From the NCBI GenBank assembly GCA_044229975.1, contig JBGARZ010000020.1, positions 64,001 to 128,000 of the forward strand: DNA of 64,000 nucleotides. The letters are read 5' to 3'. Made by a program: the position numbers and the translations under genes. Of this stretch, positions 1 to 15,086 are shown piece by piece (positions within the stretch are counted from its first letter, which is position 1; each line of letters starts with the position of its first letter). Origin of the DNA: Polyangiales bacterium (GTDB lineage Bacteria > Myxococcota_A > Polyangia > Polyangiales > Ga0077539). The notes under the pieces are model-generated. The model was not told the origin of the DNA. It did no database searches and saw nothing but the letters and a program-made list of their open reading frames with translations.

Positions 1-3000
1 CCCTTTCCCGATGCGCTGCACAACCGGGTCTTCTTCTCGACGCTCACCGACCCCGCGGTCCGCGATCTCCTCAAGGGCATCTGGACCGCCCCGATGGCCC
101 TCGACCCTTCGTTGCGCGCCGCGAAGGTCACGCGCGAGGTCGCCGTTCACCTCGCCGAGCTCGCCCGGATGTTCGAGGCGAAGTACAAGCCCGAGGACGT
201 CGCGGGCTTCCTCATGCGGTGCATCTTCACGATGTTCGCCGAGGACGCAGGGATGTTCGGGCTCGACAAGAAGAAGCTCCCACGGAAGCTGTTCACCGAG
301 GCCCTGAGAGATGACTGGCTCGATGATCCGAAGCGCTTCCAGCCCGAGGTGGAGAACCTCTGGCGGGTGATGAACGAGGGCGGGTACTTCGGTATCGCCA
401 AGCTGCTCAAGTTCAACGGCGGGCTCTTCGCCGACGCGCGGGCGCTCCCCATCACCGACCGCAAGGTGCTCGACCGGCTCCTCGAAGCAGCGACCTGTGA
501 CTGGAGCAAGGTCGAGCCCGCCATCTTCGGCACCCTCCTCGAACGCGCCCTCGACCCGAAGGAGCGACACCGGCTCGGCGCGCACTACACCCCGCGCGCC
601 TACGTCGAGCGGCTGGTGCGGCCGACGCTCGAAGCCCCCCTGCGGGCGAAGTGGGAAGCCGTTCGCGCCGAGGCGCTCAAGCGCGTCGACGAGGTGGTGT
701 CCGCGCCGGTTCCGGGCGAGGACGCGGCGGCGACGGCGGCCGGGAAGAAGAAGCGCGCGAAGAAGGTGCTCCCCAACACGGTGCACGGGCGGACGCAGGT
801 CGTGAAGGAGGCGCGGGTGCTGGTGAAGGCGTTTCACCAGGAGCTGTGCAAGGTGCGCGTGCTCGACCCGGCGTGCGGCACCGGGAACTTCCTCTACGTC
901 GCCCTCGACGCGATGAAGCGATTGGAGAGCGAGGTGCTGGCGCTCGATGCGCAGCTCGCGGCGAGCGTGGGCATCCCGGTGGACGCGGCCTTCGAGTGGG
1001 GGGCGACGGTGACGCCCGCGCAGTTTCTCGGCATCGAGAAGAAGCTGTGGGCGAAGGAGATCGCCGAGCTGGTGCTCTGGATCGGCTTCCTCCAGTGGTT
1101 CCAGCGGACGCGGCAGAACGACGACGGCTCGGTGCGCTGGGAGGAGCCCGTGCTGCGCAATCTCCACAACATCGAGTGCAGGGACGCCGTGCTCGCGTGG
1201 GATCAGGAGCTTCCGGTGCTCGACGAGAAGGGCAAGCCGGTCACGCGCTGGGACGGCGAGTCCATGAAGAAGAGCCCGGTGACGGGGGAAGACGTACCCG
1301 ATGAGACGAAGCGGGTGCTGGTGACGAAGCTGGTGAACCCGCGGCGGGCCAAGTGGCCCGAGGCGGACTACGTGGTGGGGAATCCGCCGTTTTTGGGGAA
1401 GCTCCATGTGCTCTCGCAGTTTGGTCTGGGCTACACAACGGGTCTGCGGGAGACGTACGCGGGGGACGTTCCAGACAGCGCAGACTTCGTCATGTATTGG
1501 TGGTTTCGAGCGGGTGAGCTCACGCGAGCCAGTAAGGTCGCCCGCTTTGGATTCATCACAACCAACAGTATTTCGCAGACGTTCAATCGGCGCGTAATTG
1601 AGGCCGCTCTGAATGCCGACCCCTCGCTCTCGATCACGTTCGCGATCCCTGATCACCCCTGGGTCGACACCGTCGACGGCGCGGCAGTGCGGATCGCGAT
1701 GACAGTTGGAGTTAGGGGGAGCGTTACTGGAGCACTCAACCGTGTCGTCGAGGAGACGATGCAAAGCGATGGAAGTGCGACGCCTTCCTTCTCGGTCGAA
1801 CAAGGCGTGATTCACGCCAACCTACGGATAGGCGCCAATGTCACGGTCGCGGCTAGCTTGCAGTCGAACCAAGACATCGCCGGTACCGGCCTGATCCTTG
1901 GCAATCGCGGCTTCGTCCTAGATTCCATAGAGGCGGAAGCCCTACGCTCGACGTCTCCAGAAGCTGATTCGATGATCGCGCCGTTGTGGAATGGCAAGGA
2001 CATCACTGAACGCCCAAGGGGTGCTTTCGTGATCGACACCAACGGATGGAAACAGGATGCGCTTCAGGCGCGGGCACCTGCGGTCTGGCAGCACCTGCGC
2101 AAGACTGTGTACCCAGAGCGCCAGACGAACCGAGATCCGAGAGTCAAAGCGAACTGGTGGCTGTTTCGACGAAGCAATGAACAGATTCGTGGCGCAATCG
2201 CCGGGCTGAGTCGCTACATCGCAACCGTAGAGACGGCAAAGCATCGCGTGTTTGTGTGGATGAAAGGGCACTTCAAGCCCGAGCACAAACTCGTCGTTTT
2301 TGGGAGTGATGACGCATCGGTTCTTGGGATGCTTTCATCTCGCATCCATGTCGTATGGGCACTGTCGACAGGCGGCCATCTCGGGGTAGGCAACGACCCG
2401 GTCTACTCGAAGACCAAGTGCTTCGACCCCTTCCCCTTCCCCGCCGCCACGCCCGATCAGGCCGCGCGCATCCGTGAGCTCGCGGAGTCGCTCGACGCCC
2501 ACCGGAAGGCGCGGCAGGCGGCGCACCCCACGCTGACCATGACGGGCATGTACAACGTGCTCGCGAAGCTCCGCGCGGGCGAGGCGCTCACCCCGAAGGA
2601 CCAGGAGATCCACACCCAGGGTCTCGTGTCCGTGTTGAAGCAGCTCCACGACGACCTCGACGCGGCGGTGTTCGCGGCCTACGGCTGGGACCCGGCGCTG
2701 ACCGACGAGGAGATTCTCGCGAAGGTGGTGGCGCTCAACGCGGAGCGCGCCGAGGAGGAGTCCCGCGGGGTGATCCGCTGGCTGCGTCCCGAGTTCCAGA
2801 ACCCCGGTGGGGCGAAGGCGGCGACGCAGGAGACCATGGACCTCGGCGACGAGCCCGACGAGGGCGCCGCGGTGGCGAGCGCGGTGAAGCCCATCGGGCC
2901 GTGGCCGAAGAAGACGTCGGAGCAGTTTGCGGCGGTGCGCGATCTGCTCGCGACGCGGTCGTCGGCGTGGAGCGCGACGCAGGTGACGGATGCCTTCAAG

Positions 3001-3108
3001 GGGGCGTCCGAAGACGACGTTGCGGAGATGATGGCGACGCTGGTGGTGTCGGGTCAGGCGGTCGCGTTTCAGACGCCAGAGGGAACACGCTGGCAGCGGG
3101 CGGGTTGA
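1..3108 (+). CDS. MmeI-like (type IIL) restriction-modification enzyme / N6-adenine DNA methyltransferase, 5'-truncated by the window edge
   Basis: Frame is open from base 1 (PFPDALHNRV...IWTAPMALDPS). Motif I VLDPACGTGNFL, motif IV VVGNPPFLG, GAHYTP, FNGGLF, and a C-terminal CFDPFPFP / LDAAVFAAYGW segment typical of the MmeI family. Confidence 0.88.
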   Translation, partial: PFPDALHNRVFFSTLTDPAVRDLLKGIWTAPMALDPSLRAAKVTREVAVHLAELARMFEAKYKPEDVAGFLMRCIFTMFAEDAGMFGLDKKKLPRKLFTEALRDDWLDDPKRFQPEVENLWRVMNEGGYFGIAKLLKFNGGLFADARALPITDRKVLDRLLEAATCDWSKVEPAIFGTLLERALDPKERHRLGAHYTPRAYVERLVRPTLEAPLRAKWEAVRAEALKRVDEVVSAPVPGEDAAATAAGKKKRAKKVLPNTVHGRTQVVKEARVLVKAFHQELCKVRVLDPACGTGNFLYVALDAMKRLESEVLALDAQLAASVGIPVDAAFEWGATVTPAQFLGIEKKLWAKEIAELVLWIGFLQWFQRTRQNDDGSVRWEEPVLRNLHNIECRDAVLAWDQELPVLDEKGKPVTRWDGESMKKSPVTGEDVPDETKRVLVTKLVNPRRAKWPEADYVVGNPPFLGKLHVLSQFGLGYTTGLRETYAGDVPDSADFVMYWWFRAGELTRASKVARFGFITTNSISQTFNRRVIEAALNADPSLSITFAIPDHPWVDTVDGAAVRIAMTVGVRGSVTGALNRVVEETMQSDGSATPSFSVEQGVIHANLRIGANVTVAASLQSNQDIAGTGLILGNRGFVLDSIEAEALRSTSPEADSMIAPLWNGKDITERPRGAFVIDTNGWKQDALQARAPAVWQHLRKTVYPERQTNRDPRVKANWWLFRRSNEQIRGAIAGLSRYIATVETAKHRVFVWMKGHFKPEHKLVVFGSDDASVLGMLSSRIHVVWALSTGGHLGVGNDPVYSKTKCFDPFPFPAATPDQAARIRELAESLDAHRKARQAAHPTLTMTGMYNVLAKLRAGEALTPKDQEIHTQGLVSVLKQLHDDLDAAVFAAYGWDPALTDEEILAKVVALNAERAEEESRGVIRWLRPEFQNPGGAKAATQETMDLGDEPDEGAAVASAVKPIGPWPKKTSEQFAAVRDLLATRSSAWSATQVTDAFKGASEDDVAEMMATLVVSGQAVAFQTPEGTRWQRAG

Positions 3109-3139
3109 GCGGGCCGCGAGAGAGCGATAGAGGGACGGC

Positions 3140-4462
3140 GTGTACATCGACAGACTGAAGATCGAGAACGTGCGGGGCTTCGGGGCGGGGCAGGTTGACC
3201 TGTCGTTCGATCGCGGTGGCGGGCAATACGCAGGGTGGACTGTGTTGGCGGGACGCAACGGGGCGGGAAAGACGACGCTCTTGCGGGCTCTCGCGCTTGC
3301 GGTGGTCGGACTCAGGGACGCAGACCGTTTGCAGGAGACCTTCCAGGGATGGATTCACCGGGCTGAGGTGAAGGCGAGTGCCAGTGTTCGTCTGGTTGCG
3401 CCCACTAGCTTCAGCGGCGACGAAGCCGCTTCATCGTTGTCCTACTTCGACGCTTCGATGGGTTGGTTCCTGGCTCACACCAATATCGACCCGGACGCAG
3501 AACCGACGACGATTGCAGAGCAAACAAGCCAGTCACTGCCGCTCGACAAAAGTGGTTGGTTTCTTGTCGGCTACGGTCCCTTCCGACGGCTCTCGGGACA
3601 TTCCGTCGAGGCCCAGCGTGTGATGAGCCACTCTCCGGTTTCGTCCGGCCTCGTCACACTCTTTCGCGACGATGCTTCCCTGTTCGACGGTTTCGCGTGG
3701 TTGCGCTTTCTTCGCCTGCGGCAGGCCGATGGCAAGCCAGGTGCGACCGAGCTACTCACCATCGCGTTCAATCTCCTCAACGATGGTTTGCTGCCTGATT
3801 CGTCCGTTCGCGTGGAGCGTTACGACTCCGACGGGCTGTGGGTGTCAACGCCGCGTGGAGGCGTCCGCCCGGTCGGCGACCTCTCCGACGGCTACCGCGC
3901 CGTTATCGCGCTCGTCCTCGACCTCGTCCGCTCTCTCCACCGATGTTACGGCGCGCTCCCCATGAACGGCACCGCCGTCGACCTCCCCGGCGTGGTGCTC
4001 ATCGATGAAGTCGACGCCCACCTCCATGTCAGTTGGCAACAGCGTATCGGCTTCTGGCTCAAGTCCCACTTCCCGCGCATCCAGTTTCTCGTCACCTCGC
4101 ACAGCCCCTTCGTCTGTCAGGCCGCCGACAAGAACGGCCTCATTCTCCTTCCTGAGCCAGGCACCAACGAGAAGGCCCGCGTCGCTGACGACGAGCTCTA
4201 CTACCGCGCCGTCAACGGGCCCGCCGACGCCGCGCTCCTCAGCGACCTCTTCGGGCTCGACCACACGTGGTCCGACGAGTCCGAGAAGAAGCGCATCAAG
4301 ATGGCCCGCCTCGAAGGCCGCATCCTCCACGCGAAGGCGACCGCCGAAGACCGCGTCGAGTACCAGAAGCTGCGCGAGGAGATCCCTCGCAGCCCATTCG
4401 AGACGGCGGACGTCGATCGCGCGCTCCGCACGGAGGACGTCACTCCGCCGGGAACGAAGTAG
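3140..4462 (+). CDS. ABC/AAA_21-type ATPase (PtuA/Septu-like)
   Basis: N-terminal IENVRGF, Walker A GRNGAGKTT, signature LSDGYR, Walker B LIDEVDAHLH, H-loop TSHSP. Confidence 0.85.
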   Translation: MYIDRLKIENVRGFGAGQVDLSFDRGGGQYAGWTVLAGRNGAGKTTLLRALALAVVGLRDADRLQETFQGWIHRAEVKASASVRLVAPTSFSGDEAASSLSYFDASMGWFLAHTNIDPDAEPTTIAEQTSQSLPLDKSGWFLVGYGPFRRLSGHSVEAQRVMSHSPVSSGLVTLFRDDASLFDGFAWLRFLRLRQADGKPGATELLTIAFNLLNDGLLPDSSVRVERYDSDGLWVSTPRGGVRPVGDLSDGYRAVIALVLDLVRSLHRCYGALPMNGTAVDLPGVVLIDEVDAHLHVSWQQRIGFWLKSHFPRIQFLVTSHSPFVCQAADKNGLILLPEPGTNEKARVADDELYYRAVNGPADAALLSDLFGLDHTWSDESEKKRIKMARLEGRILHAKATAEDRVEYQKLREEIPRSPFETADVDRALRTEDVTPPGTK

Positions 4463-4464
4463 TC

Positions 4465-5304
4465 GTGCGGCACCACCCGCGGAGGCCGCTCCCGGCGAGG
4501 GCGCTGGAGGCGTTGCGGCAGTGGCAGGACGCGCTCGACGTCGAGTGGGCGCGCGAGCTGGCCCGACCAGAGACCGAACGTCGCGCCGCGGGCACGGTCG
4601 CAGACGCGCATTGGAGTTCCCACCGATCGGCGACGGCCTTCGATGTCGTCAGGCTCACCCTCCGCGCCATGGCGTCACCGCGCCTTGGGCGTTGCATGTA
4701 CTGCGAGACCGACCGTGGTTCGCAGGTCGATCACGGGCGGCCGAAGTCCCTGGCTCCGGGCCTCACCTTCGTCTGGCACAATCACATCTGGGCATGCGCG
4801 CTGTGCAACCAGCAGAAAACGACTCGCTACGATCCGGCGATGATCGACCCCACGATCGACGACCCGCTTCGATATCTCGACCTCGTTCCATCAGGGCGGT
4901 GGGATCCAGAAGACGATGACGATGACGAAGGCGGACGCGGCCAGGCGACGCTCGACGCGTTGCCCATGCTCAACCACCCGGATCTCGTAGAGGAACGACT
5001 TCAGGGACGCGCTCGATTGCTCCGTCGTCTCTCGGCGTTGGCCGCTCAGGCGAGCGTCTCGACCGAGGCGCTCGACATGCTGCGAGAGGAGGTCACCAAC
5101 GACCCCTTCTCGGACGTGTTTGCCGCGCTCCTCGACGTCTTGAGGCTACCCAACGCCGCCGAGTTCTACCCGCCTGCGGTGGTGGACTTCGTGCGTGCGC
5201 GCCCCGAGATGAACGACTGGCTCGCAGAGTCCGACGAACGTCGCTGGCGCGCCGCGCAAGGCGCCATCGAGGCCCTCGCGCTGACCATCCGCCTCTCGTC
5301 GTAG
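4465..5304 (+). CDS. HNH endonuclease (PtuB-like)
   Basis: CMYCE...VDHGRPKS...WHNHIWACALCNQQK...IDPTIDDP. GTG start lies 2 nt after the ATPase stop. Confidence 0.8.
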   Translation: MRHHPRRPLPARALEALRQWQDALDVEWARELARPETERRAAGTVADAHWSSHRSATAFDVVRLTLRAMASPRLGRCMYCETDRGSQVDHGRPKSLAPGLTFVWHNHIWACALCNQQKTTRYDPAMIDPTIDDPLRYLDLVPSGRWDPEDDDDDEGGRGQATLDALPMLNHPDLVEERLQGRARLLRRLSALAAQASVSTEALDMLREEVTNDPFSDVFAALLDVLRLPNAAEFYPPAVVDFVRARPEMNDWLAESDERRWRAAQGAIEALALTIRLSS

Positions 5305-5305
5305 T

Positions 5306-5520
5306 GCATCGCCCGGAGAGGGGTACCCCCCTCTTTCACCGACACCTCGCATCGCCCGGAGAGGGGTACCCCCCTCTTTCGCCGACACCTCGCATCGCCC
5401 GGAGAGGGGTACCCCCCTCTTTCACCGACGCCTCGCATCGCCCCGAGAGACCCCCACCCCTCTTTCACCAACACCCCGCATCGTCGTGAGAGATCCCCCC
5501 ACCTCGTCCCACCAAAATGC
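5306..5520. repeat. Tandem array of five 43-bp units with an internal palindrome (GGGGTACCCC), decaying 5' to 3'
   Basis: Unit GCATCGCCCGGAGAGGGGTACCCCCCTCTTTCACCGACACCTC starts at 5306, 5349 and 5392; degenerate units start at 5435 and 5478. Confidence 0.92.
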
Positions 5521-5620: not shown

Positions 5621-6418
5621 ATGGCCCAGCCGTTCGTTCGTGTCGAGGCGTCCAACTACACCAGTGTTCCGAAGGTCAACGCCCAGAGCGGGGTGGCGCT
5701 CGCCCGCGCGCTGATCGTCGCGCTCCCGAAGGACTCCCCGCCGAGCACGCGCCACGCCGCCCGCCAGATGCGCGCCGTCGCCATCACCCTCCAGCGGTCG
5801 GTCGCCGCCAGCCACGCGGCGGAGCCCTCGGGCGAGAAGCGTACGTCCCGCGCGATCGACAACGAGGCCGACGCGCTGCACTCCACCGTGACGCGCCGCC
5901 TCGAAGACCACGAGCTGCTCGCCGCCCACGAACCGGCGAAGGCGCAGCAGGCCGCGACCCTGAAGAAGGCGCTCTACCCGAAGGGGGACGCTCTCTGGCG
6001 GGGCGACATGATGACGCAGTGGCAGGCGACGGAGGACTGGTTCATCGCGCTCGCGGTGGACGGCCGCGAGGCGGCGCTGCGGTCGCTCGTGGGCGGCGGC
6101 TTCGTCGACGCGATCCGCGCGGTGCACGCGGAGTACGGCGAGGCCATCGGGACGACGAAGCCCCGCGCCCCGACGCCCCCGAAGGTCGACCTCGCCGCGC
6201 CGCTCGCCGCGCTCGCGCAGTCGATGCAAGACCTCGCGCTCCAGCTCGTCGCGCTCGCCAACGACGGCAGCGCCAGCGACGCGCTCCGCTCCGCCGCGCG
6301 CGATGCGCTGCGCCCCATCGACGACCACCGTGAGGGCAACGCCCGCCGCACCGCCGCCCGCGCGCCGGACGACGCGCCGGAGCCGACGCCGGACGAGAAG
6401 CCGCTGCCCGAGGTGTAG
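5621..6418 (+). CDS. Hypothetical alpha-helical protein
   Basis: ATG at 5621 after a GGAGGAG RBS; host-like GC3 codon bias; no recognisable catalytic motif. Confidence 0.75.
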   Translation: MAQPFVRVEASNYTSVPKVNAQSGVALARALIVALPKDSPPSTRHAARQMRAVAITLQRSVAASHAAEPSGEKRTSRAIDNEADALHSTVTRRLEDHELLAAHEPAKAQQAATLKKALYPKGDALWRGDMMTQWQATEDWFIALAVDGREAALRSLVGGGFVDAIRAVHAEYGEAIGTTKPRAPTPPKVDLAAPLAALAQSMQDLALQLVALANDGSASDALRSAARDALRPIDDHREGNARRTAARAPDDAPEPTPDEKPLPEV

Positions 6419-6463
6419 CGCCGGGCGGTGGGCGATCGACGATGGCCTGGCAGTCATCGGGGG

Positions 6464-6996
6464 CCACGCCGCGGCGTCAGCGCGGCGCGCACTGGTCAGG
6501 CCAGCAGCGGGCGGGCCCACGCCGCGGCGTCAGCGCGGCGCGCACTGGTCAGGCCAGCAGCGGGCGGGCCCACGCCGCGGCGTCAGCGCGGCGCGCACTG
6601 GTCACGCCCGCAGTCACCGCTGCCACGCCGCGGCGTCAGCGCGGCGCGCACTGGTCACGTCCACAGTCACCGCTGCCACGCCGCGGCGTCAGCGCGGCGC
6701 GCACTGGTCACGCCCGCAGTCACCGGGGGCCACGCCGCGGCGTCAGCGCGGCGCGCGACGGTCACGTCCACAGTCACCGCTGCCACGCCGCGGCGTCAGC
6801 GCGGCGCGCGACGGTCACGTCCACAGTCACCGCTGCCACGCCGCGGCGTCAGCGCGGCGCGCGACAGTCAGGCCCGCAGTCACCGCTGCCACGCCGCGGC
6901 GTCAGCGCGGCGCGCGACAGTCAGGCCCGCAGTCACCGCTGCCACGCCGCGGCGTCAGCGCGGCGCGCGACGGTCAGGCCCACTGTCACCGGGGCC
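6464..6996. repeat. Left REP-like array: 10 units, ~53-bp period
   Basis: Core CACGCCGCGGCGTCAGCGCGGCGCGC at 6465, 6518, 6571, 6624, 6677, 6731, 6784, 6837, 6890 and 6943, with ~27-nt variable spacers. Confidence 0.95.
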
Positions 6997-7477
6997 GATC
7001 GTCGTGGTGTTCGTCGCACACGTAGTCGACTGCACCGCGCACGTCTGACTCGGAGCGCAGGTGTTGCTTGTTGCCATCCCGCGACCACACATCGCGCTCG
7101 CACAGCTCCGGCGCGTTGTTCCGAAGGTGGCGCGTCGCCCAGGCCTTGAGATCGCCGAGAACCTTCTCGGCGCTGGCGGGCGCTGCGACCACCACATGAA
7201 CGTGCTCCCGTTGAACACGCAGAGCATGGAGCGTCCAACCTCGGTGCGAACAGGTCTCCCGCACGGCAGACTCCACGATGTGGCGTTGGAGCGGCGTTAG
7301 CTGAAGCGCGGGGAATCGCATGCGTTCGCGGCAGCGGGCCAGGATGACGGGGTCATGTCCGTGTTGCCCGACGCCGCGTTCGGTCCAGCCGCGTTCGTCG
7401 CCCTGCAGCCAGGTGCCGTAGGTGCGCCAGGAGATGAAGTAACCGACGGGATGGAGGGAGTGACGGTTCGAGCTCAT
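6986..7477 (-). mobile_element. RAYT-like / IS200-family Y1 HUH transposase-nuclease (REP-associated)
   Basis: 163 aa; YFISWRTYGTW at the N-terminus, HUH motif HVHVVV, LKAW, W-x-R-x-G and catalytic-helix AVDYV; flanked by REP arrays. Confidence 0.85.
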
Positions 7478-7541
7478 GGTCGCTCATCGGTTCGTGGCGG
7501 CCGTGGTTGCGTGCTCCGACACTTTTTGTCGCTATTGGCGG

Positions 7542-8490
7542 CTGCGAACGTGAGCGTTGCGCGCCGCGCTGACGCCGCGGCGTAGGCGCCGATGACTGCG
7601 GAAGTGAGCATTGCGCGCCGCGCTGACGCCGCGGCGTAGGCGCCGATGACTGCGGAAGTGAGCATTGCGCGCCGCGCTGACGCCGCGGCGTAGCAGCGGT
7701 GACTGCGGACGTAGCCGCTGCGCGCCGCGCTGACGCCGCGGCGTAGGCCCGCCTGCTGCGGACGTGACCGTTGCGCGCCACGCTGACGCTGTGGCGTAGC
7801 AGCGGTGACTGCGGACGTAGGCGCTGCGCGCCGCGCTGACGCCGCGGCGTGGGCCCGCCTGCTGCGGACGTAGCCGCTGCGCGCCGCACTGACGCCGCGG
7901 CGTAGCGCCGGTGACTGCGGGCGTGAGCGTTGCGCGCCACGCTGACGCTGTGGCGTAGCAGCGGTGACTGCGGACGTGAGCGTTGCGCGCCGCGCTGACG
8001 CCGCGGCGTGGGCCCGCCTGCTGCGGACGTGAGCGTTGCGCGCCGCGCTCACGCCGCGGCGTGGGCCCGCCTGCTGCGGACGTGAGCGTTGCGCGCCGCG
8101 CTGACGCCGCGGCGTAGGCCCGCCTGCTACGGACGTAGCCGCTGCGCGCCGCGCTGACGCCGCGGCGTGGGCCCGCCTGCTGCGGACGTGACCGTTGCGC
8201 GCCGCGCTGACGCTGTGGCGTAGCACCGGTGACTGCTGGCCTGACCAGTGCGCGCCGCGCTGACGCCGCGGCGTGGGCCCCGGTGACTGCTGGCCTGACC
8301 AGTGCGCGCCGCGCTGACGCCGCGGCGTAGGCCCGCCTGCTACGGACGTAGCCGCTGCGCGCCGCGCTGACGCCGCGGCGTAGGCCCGCCTGCTGCTGGC
8401 CTGACCGTTGCGCGTCGCGCTGACGCCGCGGCGTGGGCCCGCCTGCTGCGGACGTAGCCGCTGCGCGCCGCGCTGACGCCGCGGCGTGGC
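7542..8490. repeat. Right REP-like array: 18 units, ~53-bp period, inverted relative to the left array
   Basis: Core GCGCGCCGCGCTGACGCCGCGGCGTRG at 7559, 7613, 7667, 7720, 7773, 7826, 7879, 7932, 7985, 8038, 8091, 8144, 8197, 8250, 8304, 8357, 8410 and 8463. Confidence 0.95.
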
Positions 8491-11723: not shown

Positions 11724-14700
11724 TCACACCGGCTCGGCGTAGCGCCCGACGAGGTCGCGCATGGGCTCGTCGTCGAGGGCCGTGTCGCAGCAGGCGCGGT
11801 AGACGTCCGGGGCGCTCCCCTCGGGGCGGTCGACGAAGGCGCAGGGTTGCCGACGGCCGGTCGGGTTGAGCGTTCCGAGCACGCAGTGGCGGCGCTCCAG
11901 GGGCATCACCTCGGCCTCGATCGCGGCGCGCACCCGGCGCTCGAAGTCCTCGATGGTGACGAGGCCGCGGCCGTCGTCCGCGCGCGACGCGCGAACCCAC
12001 TCCAGCGCGAGGCGGGCGCGGCGGCAGCCGCCGGCGATGGCGGCGTTTTGCAGCCGCAGGTCGAAGCCGAGCGCCGGACTGAACGCAAACGCATGCGCAT
12101 ACCCCGGCTGCGCGGGCGCGATGTGGATGAAGTCCGCGCAGATGGCCGGGCGCACGTCGGCGACCGCGCTCTCGGGGTGACCCGCCGCGCGCATCTCGCG
12201 GGCCTCGCGGCGTAGCTGCGGGTTGGCGTACTTCGCGACGCGGTTGATCTGCTGCTGGGTCACCAGCGTGCGATGCACCTTGTCGGCCTCGGCGGTGATG
12301 CGCGCGCGGCGGTACACCGCGACCACCGACGGGTCCGTCGGGTCGCCGCCGGGGACGCGCGGCGGCTCGGTGAGGCTGAGCAGCAGCACCCGATGACGGT
12401 GCTCGGAGAGCCACTCGGCCCCGGGGCGACTGGCGAGCGCGCGGAGGTACGCGAAGGCCGAGTCGCTGGGGAAGTTGTTGAGAATCCCGCCGTCGGCGTA
12501 GAGGCTGCCGACGCCGCTCCCCTCCGGCCGACCGACGCCGAAGAGCTCGCGCTGCGTTCGTAATCTGAACGCGAGCGGAAACGATGACGCCGCCAGCGGG
12601 GCCTGCATCGCGAGGGGCCAGCGCGCCGCCGTGGGCTCCCCGTTGACGGCGTGCGGCCCGGCGCCGAAGTGCACCAGCACCCCGCGGTCGTGGTCGGTCA
12701 CGGTGAAGAGAAACCGCGTCCGCGCGCGCCGCGCATAGGCGTCGAGGTCGACGGTGGCGCCGTCGGCGGAGAAGACCATCGCGCGCAGCTTCTCCTCGAT
12801 GCGGTCGAGGCCGAGGAGCTCGGGCATCGCCCCGTCGCGGCCGCGCAGCGCGAGGCCCCACGCCTCGGCGCGATCGTCGAGCAGCCCCACCACGTCGACG
12901 AAGCGTCCTCGCATGAGCGCGCGCAGGCTGTCGCGGACCTCGGCGCGACGTTCGGGGGAGAGGCCCAGCGCGGCGGCGACGGCCGGCCACGGCGGCGCGT
13001 CGCTGTCGCCCGCGAGCGCCGCAAGGAGCGCGGCAGGAGAGAGGGCCCGCAGCTCGGTGCTCTCTGCCCACAGGCGCGTGAGACGGCTCGCGAGCTCGTC
13101 GACGCGGCCGCCCCCGCCATCGGCCGCGCGGTCGAACCACTCGGGAACGGTCTGCATCAAGCGCACGGCCTCGAAGAGGGTCTTCGGGCTGCTGCTCGAT
13201 GCGTGGAGGAGGTACGAGAAGATGGTTCCGACGGAGGCGCCGGCGTAGAGCCGCGGGGCGAGCTCGTAGTCGTTGAAGGCCGCGATGGCCCCGACCTGAA
13301 ACACCCCGCGAAACACGCCCCCCGCGGGCACCACGATGTCGAGCGGCCCGCGCCCCTCCGGCGCGACCTCGATGGGGTCGGCCCGGTCGACGGACTCGCT
13401 GCTCACATGCCCGTGGCGCTCGACCACCGGGGCCGCGCGCAGTCGCCCGGTGCACCCCGCGCACACCGCCTCCACCGGTCGCAGGTACCCATCACTCCGC
13501 GGAACCCCCTTGCCCGCGAGCGCATCGAGCAGCGCAGCGCAGGACACCGCGCCGTCACCCTCGGCGAGCTCGCGCAGCGTGACGGCGTGCAGGGCTTCGA
13601 GCGTGGCGCGGCAGCCCTGCGCCATGGCGTGGGCGTACTCTGCGCGCGTCGGCGCCGAGAGGGCCTCCATGGGAAGGAGGTCGTCGGGCGCGATGGTGGT
13701 GCAGTCCACGGGGACGGCCGGGTGCCCGCTGCGGTCGAGCAGCGCGTCGTCGGGCGGCGGCGTCGGGGACTTCTTCGCGCGGCGCACGGCGCGGATCATC
13801 TGCGTGATGAGCGACACCACGCGAGCGTTGAACTGGAGGTCCTCCTGGCCCCAGAGGCGGAGGCTGCGGAGGGCGGCCTCGAAGAGCGCGGGCGGCGGGT
13901 CGTCGGGCCCGCGGTGCACCGCCGTCACGTCGCGCGGCCCCGTGTAGACCACGAAGAGCCGGTGCGCGGGGATGGTCCACGGGTCGTCGCCGCGGCGCTC
14001 GCCTCGCCACACGTTGAGCACCTGCGTGAGCGGCGCGTGCTGCACGTGACCCGCGTCGACGAGCAGGTCGTCGGGCACGCACCCCGCCGGCGTCTCCCCG
14101 AACGGAAACACCGCGCGCACCCGCTCCGGCGGAAACATCGGCAGCGTCGCGCACGCCGCGCGGATGGCGGGCCAGAGCCTCGCTTCGCCGTCGAGCAGCA
14201 CGATGCGCGGCGCCCGCAGGCCCTCGTCGAAGGAGCTCACGTTGGCCGCCTCGAACACCAGCCGCGAGCGCACGAGCGAGCGCATCGGCAGCTCGCCGCG
14301 GCCCGGCAGCGACGAGCGCAGCAGCGGCGCGAAGGGGCTCGCGTCGAGGGTCTTCTGCGACAGCGACTCGCGCATCCCGAAGGCGTCGAGCGCCACCTGC
14401 GCCACGTCCGCGGCGCCCTCCGGGAAGAGCACCGACCCGAGCGTCTCGTCGCCGTGACGAAACGCCGGGTCGCCCACCTCCGCGCTCACCCGCCGCGCGA
14501 TCCTCCGCCACGCGTGCCGCGCGAACGATCGCAGCAGCGCCCGGCGGTGCCTCGACGGGAGCCGCGCGAGCAGGCGTGCGCCCCACCACGCGCGGGCCAT
14601 CGTCGAGCGGGCGCGGGCGATGCGGGCGAGCTCGTCGAGGCTCCGCGGGAGGGCGACGAGCGCGTCGATCATCTCGCGCAGCGGGGCGCCCTCCCCAAAC

Positions 14701-15086
14701 AGCACCGACCACGCCGCGCCGCCCGGATCACCGTCGAGCCATGTGCCGATGTACCGCTCGACGAGCGCGCGCCGCTCGGATTGGTCATCGCACTCGGCGG
14801 CGAGCGCGAGCACCGTCCCGGCGAGGCAGCCGACGCTCGTCCCCGCGATGGTGCGCGGGTAGTAGCCCGTCATCACGAGGGCGTGCACCACCCCGGCGTG
14901 GAAGCTCCCCTTGGCCCCGCTGTCGCCGAGCGCGATGCCTGCCAGCGGGTCGCGCACCGGGAAGCCATGGTCGAAGGGAAACGCGAAGGGCTGTGCCCCA
15001 CGCGGGTTGTCCGGGTCGTCGAGCAGCCAGCGCTCCTCGAACGTCCCCCTCCTCGCGTCTCCCATCGACCGCGATGGTACCCGCAT
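11724..15086 (-). CDS. Large protein with two tandem patatin-like phospholipase domains
   Basis: Domain 1: GDSGAKG, GTSVG, DAG. Domain 2: AGGVFRG, GASVG, DGGILNN. Confidence 0.8.
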   Translation of the reverse strand: MRVPSRSMGDARRGTFEERWLLDDPDNPRGAQPFAFPFDHGFPVRDPLAGIALGDSGAKGSFHAGVVHALVMTGYYPRTIAGTSVGCLAGTVLALAAECDDQSERRALVERYIGTWLDGDPGGAAWSVLFGEGAPLREMIDALVALPRSLDELARIARARSTMARAWWGARLLARLPSRHRRALLRSFARHAWRRIARRVSAEVGDPAFRHGDETLGSVLFPEGAADVAQVALDAFGMRESLSQKTLDASPFAPLLRSSLPGRGELPMRSLVRSRLVFEAANVSSFDEGLRAPRIVLLDGEARLWPAIRAACATLPMFPPERVRAVFPFGETPAGCVPDDLLVDAGHVQHAPLTQVLNVWRGERRGDDPWTIPAHRLFVVYTGPRDVTAVHRGPDDPPPALFEAALRSLRLWGQEDLQFNARVVSLITQMIRAVRRAKKSPTPPPDDALLDRSGHPAVPVDCTTIAPDDLLPMEALSAPTRAEYAHAMAQGCRATLEALHAVTLRELAEGDGAVSCAALLDALAGKGVPRSDGYLRPVEAVCAGCTGRLRAAPVVERHGHVSSESVDRADPIEVAPEGRGPLDIVVPAGGVFRGVFQVGAIAAFNDYELAPRLYAGASVGTIFSYLLHASSSSPKTLFEAVRLMQTVPEWFDRAADGGGGRVDELASRLTRLWAESTELRALSPAALLAALAGDSDAPPWPAVAAALGLSPERRAEVRDSLRALMRGRFVDVVGLLDDRAEAWGLALRGRDGAMPELLGLDRIEEKLRAMVFSADGATVDLDAYARRARTRFLFTVTDHDRGVLVHFGAGPHAVNGEPTAARWPLAMQAPLAASSFPLAFRLRTQRELFGVGRPEGSGVGSLYADGGILNNFPSDSAFAYLRALASRPGAEWLSEHRHRVLLLSLTEPPRVPGGDPTDPSVVAVYRRARITAEADKVHRTLVTQQQINRVAKYANPQLRREAREMRAAGHPESAVADVRPAICADFIHIAPAQPGYAHAFAFSPALGFDLRLQNAAIAGGCRRARLALEWVRASRADDGRGLVTIEDFERRVRAAIEAEVMPLERRHCVLGTLNPTGRRQPCAFVDRPEGSAPDVYRACCDTALDDEPMRDLVGRYAEPV

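Follow-up and report, generated by a model that had tools for sequence, protein, structure and literature searches.

Class 3 of the TnpA-Y1 proteins is defined in Table 1 of Quentin 2018 (PMC6006769) by the motifs NHVH and Y----Q, and its genes are described there as bordered by atypical hairpins that have CnGA as foot and may number up to ~600 in a genome. The class 3 hairpins given in Table S1 of the same work consist of an outer GC stem, an internal loop, a 2-bp stem and a GTNA loop. The text of that study likens the class to both IS and REPtrons and presents it without experimental testing, and our literature search found no experimental or biochemical work on class 3 TnpA-Y1. For REPs more generally, a model of excision, re-insertion and amplification that includes capture of flanking genes has been proposed (Ton-Hoang 2012, PMC3333891), REP singletons or dimers are described as reiterated in tandem with flanking DNA (Di Nocera 2013, PMC3733652), REP arrays and clusters have been found adjoining RAYT genes (Bertels and Rainey 2011, PMC3116915), and foot-directed choice of the cut site has been shown for a group 3 enzyme (PMC8266576).

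The locus compared with these systems here lies within a window of 64,000 nt (the whole stretch of DNA analysed) from a Polyangiales bacterium, and is very probably a REPtron, in which a single-copy class-3-like TnpA-Y1 gene stands between arrays of GTCA-loop hairpins that read inward. The gene (6986..7477, minus strand) was assigned from a Pfam Y1_Tnp match, motifs and a fold model as a 163-aa RAYT-like HUH tyrosine nuclease/transposase, and occurs once in the genome. The downstream array (6464..6994, plus strand) comprises 10 head-to-tail units, each made up of a foot, a GTCA-loop hairpin and a 25-26-nt linker, and the upstream array (7533..8489, minus strand) comprises 18 such units with a partial innermost linker; both read towards the gene with a period of 53 or 54 bp (TRF scores of 711 and 1100). 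Unit mapping and TRF therefore confirm what the preliminary description had reported, namely 10 and 18 units, head-to-tail within each array, in two arrays inverted about a Y1/HUH gene. The gene takes its stop codon from a linker, that of the innermost repeat unit on the left. A scan for promoters and terminators, which is not informative for this organism, gave no match. None of the public contigs matching the locus spans either array, as might be expected if the array length were an assembly artefact, but this reading is extremely improbable, given that the units differ mosaically (20 of the 28 linkers are distinct), that exact multi-unit array pieces are present in sequencing runs of three studies (e.g. 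8343-8475 with 0 differences, X3), that a 263-nt public piece in X4 connects the gene start with the first array units, and that the contig carrying the locus measures 172 kb in an assembly of 39 contigs.

The 163-aa ORF scored 29.7 bits against Pfam Y1_Tnp (cut-off 23) and fell below the cut-offs of the NCBIfam models for REP-associated transposases (NF047646, 32.9 vs 80) and IS200/IS605 (NF033573, 32.7 vs 55). Its HUH motif is H92-V93-H94 (7196..7204, minus strand), with H92 and H94 conserved in 46/46 rows and, in a larger alignment, in 96/97 and 97/97 rows, respectively, and the predicted catalytic tyrosine, Y152, is found in 96/97 rows. Between Y152 and H157 (7007..7024, minus strand) the protein has the C-terminal signature YVCDEH instead of Y----Q, with H replacing the Q of the family at Y+5, a position occupied by Q in 77 and by H in 5 of the 97 rows. 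A PDB sequence search returned nothing relevant, but a fold search did give matches: an AlphaFold model built from a 46-row alignment (pLDDT 92.4) had E. coli TnpA-REP 4ER8 (YafM) as its best match (E 5e-6, rmsd 3.1), followed by IS200/IS605 TnpAs (IS608, ISDra2). An HUH motif, a single putative catalytic Tyr and a modelled Y1 transposase fold place the protein in the TnpA-Y1 superfamily, and, taken with the Y1_Tnp match and the genome-wide dispersal of the repeat, uphold the earlier proposal of an HUH enzyme of RAYT/TnpA-REP-like type that is linked to the hairpins on either side of its gene. Decay as an explanation for H157 was rejected because four relatives also carry H at this position. 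In terms of HUH chemistry, His may substitute for Gln as the third metal ligand.

Homologues were found mostly in Planctomycetota and Acidobacteriota and carry NHVH and Y----Q. The window protein nests among these proteins at 35-53% identity, the nearest homologue being 53% identical, and the loci L030, L084 and L095 bear a hairpin identical in kind to the Solibacter class 3 REPs of Table S1. The motifs of its homologues and the Table S1 hairpins of their loci thus suggest, indirectly, that the window protein groups with class 3. It has the extended N-terminal conservation of the class and an atypical hairpin with a short apical stem and GTNA loop; as Q157H and an altered 5' foot, (C/G)YYA in place of CnGA, depart from the class definition, we file it as a class 3 variant and not as a plain member. 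The Y----H signature is common to the window protein, P0002, L006, L015 and L043, which group as a single branch (SH-aLRT 97) in a quick tree with SH-aLRT support alone, in which long branches were flagged for the paralogue clade and L010. No member of this Y--D-HH subclade was detected in 400 genomes of the class searched with a five-row alignment (E<=1e-20).

The repeat is exemplified by the copy at 6463..6487 (plus strand), with its foot at 6463-6466 and, at 6467-6487, a predicted fold with a 6-bp stem, a single purine bulge, a 2-bp stem and a GTCA loop. Over 187 genomic copies the bulge is the only strongly variable hairpin position (G 106 / A 79), two units show a compensatory double change and loop variants are of the GTNA type, while the foot positions read C150/G30, C172, C141/T45 and A186; feet at other homologous loci also vary (CTAA, CCAA, CAGA and GCAA). 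The preliminary description had read the repeat on the other strand, as a hairpin core ending in a GTAG/GTGG tag, and neither its polarity nor its tag is retained here. On the opposite strand, the repeat reads as a class-3-type hairpin with a GTCA loop, a strand assignment that follows from family homology, as wobble-type changes, judged by eye, do not settle the strand. The GTRG tetramer, found 3' to the conserved hairpin, corresponds to the foot region read in reverse complement and appears as GTAA in 12/187 copies. GTRG was also considered as the 5' tag of a second hairpin and was ruled out on conservation, which is 40-67% past 4 nt beyond GTRG at outer ends.

The linkers, described previously as CRISPR-like variable spacers, are instead mosaic variants of one sequence: 18 of the 26 inner linkers are distinct, with a mean pairwise identity of 67% (38% when shuffled), and they combine few alleles of three short blocks, with alleles common to both inverted arrays. 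Adjacent identical units are present within the arrays, and the linker consensus of the arrays also borders dispersed copies elsewhere in the genome. The unique, non-repetitive spacers of CRISPR arrays are therefore lacking, and no cas genes were found among the scanned neighbours on both sides, the 265-aa left neighbour being without a family match. A strict period and the presence of R-M and Septu genes about 1.2 kb away are consistent with arrays that yield, on processing, guide or decoy RNAs or ssDNAs of ~53 nt with a role in defence, but such a function is highly improbable, given linkers that vary on a single consensus, at dispersed copies as well, the absence of a second effector gene between or beside the arrays, and the location of 79/81 repeat clusters elsewhere. 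Searches of the locus against Rfam (E<=1) gave no match and blastn against a phage collection gave a single weak one (E 4e-3, 73%), the class-3-like genes with arrays in relatives lie in unrelated contexts, and nothing on guide arrays with HUH enzymes was found in the literature search. The guide or decoy idea is abandoned here in favour of a dispersed REP, whose inverted arrays recur without the gene at 10 other sites.

The genomic neighbourhood differs from that described previously, in which the locus was placed inside a defence island. Genes of this kind lie on the left, one gene away, where an MmeI-like type IIG restriction-modification gene and a Septu-like PtuA/PtuB pair (94-5304) are separated from the REPtron by the 265-aa gene (5621-6418); to the right lies a host sensor kinase/regulator pair that is conserved across the genus. 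Six relatives have another gene in front of the kinase gene, one that is on contig C23 in the source genome, and orthologues of the 265-aa gene have other right neighbours. In one relative (G002, L125:2343-2639), the orthologue of the 265-aa gene is directly followed, at the position of the REPtron, by inverted arrays of another class-3-like repeat, which have a 45-bp unit and no gene, and on this sequence comparison the spot looks like a repeat landing site and not a component of a defence module. Upstream of the 265-aa gene lies a separate tandem repeat of 4 copies with a 43-bp unit (5306-5483); its core has no other site in the genome, and 42-43-bp tandem repeats precede homologues of the 265-aa gene in L125, L126, L130 and L134 and adjoin one in L127. 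The window also contains a 1120-aa ORF with two patatin-like stretches (11724-15086, minus strand).

Counting the core across the genome, as the preliminary description had suggested, revealed an abundant dispersed REP, an outcome which that description had listed as speaking against its own reading. A search with the 22-nt core, allowing as many as 3 mismatches, returned 193 matches, of which 187 were kept after removal of 6 that lacked a foot and had 2 or more mismatches. These 187 copies form 81 clusters, 79 of them away from the window locus, comprising 48 singles, 13 one-direction runs (two of which are the window locus), 10 inverted doublets and 10 gene-less inverted arrays, with the foot outward in 20/20 inverted clusters. 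None of the 187 copies lies inside a called gene (our own codon model; 7,622 genes, 88% coding). The gene is thus flanked by its own hairpin repeat, which is also dispersed in intergenic DNA, as in a REPtron. The exact 22-nt pattern has 122 matches in the source genome and 0 in 40 relatives, and the gene with this repeat is likewise absent from these 40 relatives. One doublet centre occurs at both C27:126509 (3+3 units) and C28:43736 (4+10 units), and a second family of doublet centres is found at five sites with differing unit numbers, suggesting that the doublet is copied and that its arms then lengthen or shrink. The hairpin of this REP was also seen, with a different, shorter linker, in a run of 36-bp period (G000:C19:482034-482178). 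The other three Y1 genes of the genome and a paralogue have their own repeats and are 66 kb or more from any REP copy. These three genes, L001 (C23:67598), L002 (C23:54594) and L003 (C34:47434), have the Y---Q--HH signature of subclass 1.2, for which Table 1 of PMC6006769 gives no REP, and each has a repeat of its own, which flanks the gene in long inverted copies of about 60-130 nt.

Arrays beside the gene are not restricted to the window. Among 80 loci with flanks at least 500 nt long, tandem repeats were present on both sides in 12 (2/12 being the window locus), on one side in 20 and on neither in 48; leaving out the window locus, arrays on both sides were found at 10/78 genome loci, and they were found at 7/47 metagenome homologue loci. 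Of nine class-3-like loci of the same genus, six are bordered on either side by tandem arrays, built in each case from a unit particular to the locus (34-47 bp). Other examined loci, most from more fragmented assemblies, have at most about 8 copies per run, and L006, L015 and L043 of the Y--D-HH subclade have 1-3 spaced copies, with no long arrays seen. A strict class-3 hairpin pattern gave 88 matches within 500 nt of the genes, at 33/95 loci, and 11 matches in more distal DNA, of which there was 2.7 times more. Hairpin orientation at genome loci was 74 inward vs 14 outward (16 from the window locus), and at metagenome loci 22 vs 19, with no inward bias. Shorter inverted arrays flank many homologues, whereas the preliminary description had named their absence as a finding that would speak against its reading, and the array layout is therefore a family trait rather than the mark of a new system.

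We favour, as the likely explanation of the whole locus, a REPtron whose enzyme spreads its hairpin and amplifies it head-to-tail. By analogy with IS608 and TnpA-REP chemistry, the enzyme would fold on the hairpin of one strand, binding and cutting the GTCA-loop hairpin as single-stranded DNA. Base pairing with the 4-nt foot would determine which dinucleotide is cut (TG or TA with CYYA as foot; GT in a YYAC register), Y152 would form a 5'-phosphotyrosine, and strand transfer would excise or re-insert unit-length pieces. The inverted doublet with its centre is likely to be the dispersing unit, with local re-copying adding units outward, most strongly beside the gene, and exchange inside linkers yielding the mosaic, so that the arrays would be a by-product and substrate of the cycle and not a memory or guide store. 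Iterative HUH-driven amplification, raised in the preliminary description, is plausible in that it matches the published BIME model (PMC3333891).

Array growth was probably driven by the enzyme and was not passive. Replication slippage or unequal recombination between hairpin-bearing units, with the enzyme seeding doublets only, would be an unlikely source of the long arrays, albeit one that fits several observations: adjacent identical units and mosaic linkers are as expected of tandem turnover, a 14-unit cluster without a gene is present on another contig, and breakpoints are not concentrated. Partial units end at points scattered along the linker: 11 of the 105 outer ends share one GT and two places each account for 12 of the 105 inner ends, peaks too mild for a cut site to be read from them. 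Enzyme-driven growth is instead favoured, though not decisively, by the two longest single-orientation runs (18 and 10 units), which adjoin the gene (one 10-unit run at C28 ties), by linker alleles common to both inverted arrays, and by the amplification of unrelated units of differing periods beside different class-3-like genes.

A different possibility is a mobile element of IS200/IS605-like type, with stuttered ends, that comprises the entire 2 kb, transposes in one piece and may carry other genes. The likening of class 3 to both IS and REPtrons (PMC6006769), the absence of gene and repeat from the 40 relatives and the inward REP pairs that enclose single genes, one of them with an empty site in 4/5 relatives, are consistent with such an element. 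It is nonetheless quite improbable, as the gene is single-copy in the genome, rearrangement of the neighbouring genes in the relatives left no definable empty site of the REPtron among them, and both flanks carry the same hairpin, inverted. The left and right ends of IS608 are, by contrast, distinct and on the same strand. For the same reasons of copy number and inverted identical hairpins on both sides, the locus does not fall within IS200/IS605 (subclass 1.1).

The enclosed genes and the paralogue also allow a broader proposal. The paralogue (L018, G000:C13:212969-213430; about 30% identity) belongs to a long-branched Y---RH clade common in the genus, and its hairpin family numbers 73 copies in 46 clusters, with a unit that has about half of the window linker. 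Three clusters of this family touch window-family clusters (0.20 expected under uniform placement; 3/2000 permutations), and two of the three are in-register hybrids 48 nt apart, at C32:37929 and C34:420897. Nine pairs of clusters lie within 2.5 kb of each other, 7 of them purely inward including the window locus, compared with uniform expectations of 1.4 and 0.2, respectively, although uniform placement ignores insertion hot spots. The other six inward pairs enclose one ORF in five cases and a doublet of another Y1 gene's repeat in one. In the latter (L106:1530-2030; C19:491511-492026), two arrays of the window REP enclose an inverted doublet of the L001-type repeat, which indicates that later insertion is a further way for centres to be filled. 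At C32:823505, a REP-DUF1801-REP block is missing between the same two genes in 4/5 relatives, which are too distant for base-level junctions, and the fifth is rearranged; the DUF1801 cassette takes its stop codon from the linker, as does the enzyme's own gene. Empty-site comparison at L105 and L110 found one flank syntenic only. Single ORFs inside inward REP pairs were observed at L102, L103, L104, L105 and L107, several with lower GC3 (0.79-0.86); L103 and L104 have similar lipoprotein-like N-termini, L103 has an FGE-sulfatase domain and L107 is DUF1801. A literature search on RAYT cargo gave mostly unrelated work. A modular ssDNA cassette system, in which two paralogues share a linker scaffold with swappable hairpins and inward REP pairs capture and move single genes, is a rather doubtful proposal; if true, it would imply an integron-like gene-shuffling role, a retargetable foot and an all-histidine metal site.

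For the in vivo copying and amplification of REPs this locus offers a test case: an intact-looking enzyme together with a young, genome-specific repeat found in states from the singlet to the 18-unit run. The changed foot leads to a sharp cut-site prediction, and the second enzyme-repeat pair in the same genome provides a specificity control.

Set against known systems, the locus resembles CRISPR arrays in its fixed period and palindromic conserved part, and differs from them in lacking unique spacers and adjacent cas genes, in having two inverted arrays and in the genome-wide distribution of its repeat. With the E. coli REPtron (TnpA-REP YafM, 4ER8, BIMEs; PMC3333891), which supplies the best fold match, it shares a single-copy gene, variable numbers of flanking repeats and dispersed intergenic repeats, and that work also proposed that repeats are amplified in tandem, that linkers become mosaic and that neighbouring genes are captured. 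However, the window locus has neither the GT[AG]G foot directly 5' of the hairpin nor the Y---NP motif of canonical RAYT or class 2 TnpA-REP proteins, whose NF047646 cut-off it also does not reach, and its units are head-to-tail and not alternating inverted REP pairs. Pseudomonas REPINs and tandem REPs, as described in PMC3116915 and PMC3733652, are comparable in their inverted doublets as the likely dispersing unit, in their singlets, in the tandem reiteration of singletons with flanking DNA and in a cluster by the cognate gene, whereas the enzyme class and hairpin are different and, at the window locus, arrays lengthen each arm of the doublet outward. The locus also resembles class 3 TnpA-Y1 as presented in PMC6006769, with an extended conserved N-terminus, HVH and W motifs, a catalytic Tyr and a length of about 160 aa, flanking hairpins with an outer GC stem, a small internal irregularity, a 2-bp stem and a GTNA loop, high hairpin copy number and several paralogues per genome. 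The window protein differs from this class in Y----H for Y----Q and in E for N before HVH, the repeat differs in a (C/G)YYA foot for CnGA and a single purine bulge for a 2x2 loop, and the arrays consist of 10 + 18 head-to-tail units, the word 'tandem' being absent from the main text of PMC6006769 (figures apart). The locus is a good test case and not a new kind of system: it is an unusually long REPtron of a class-3-like subclade.
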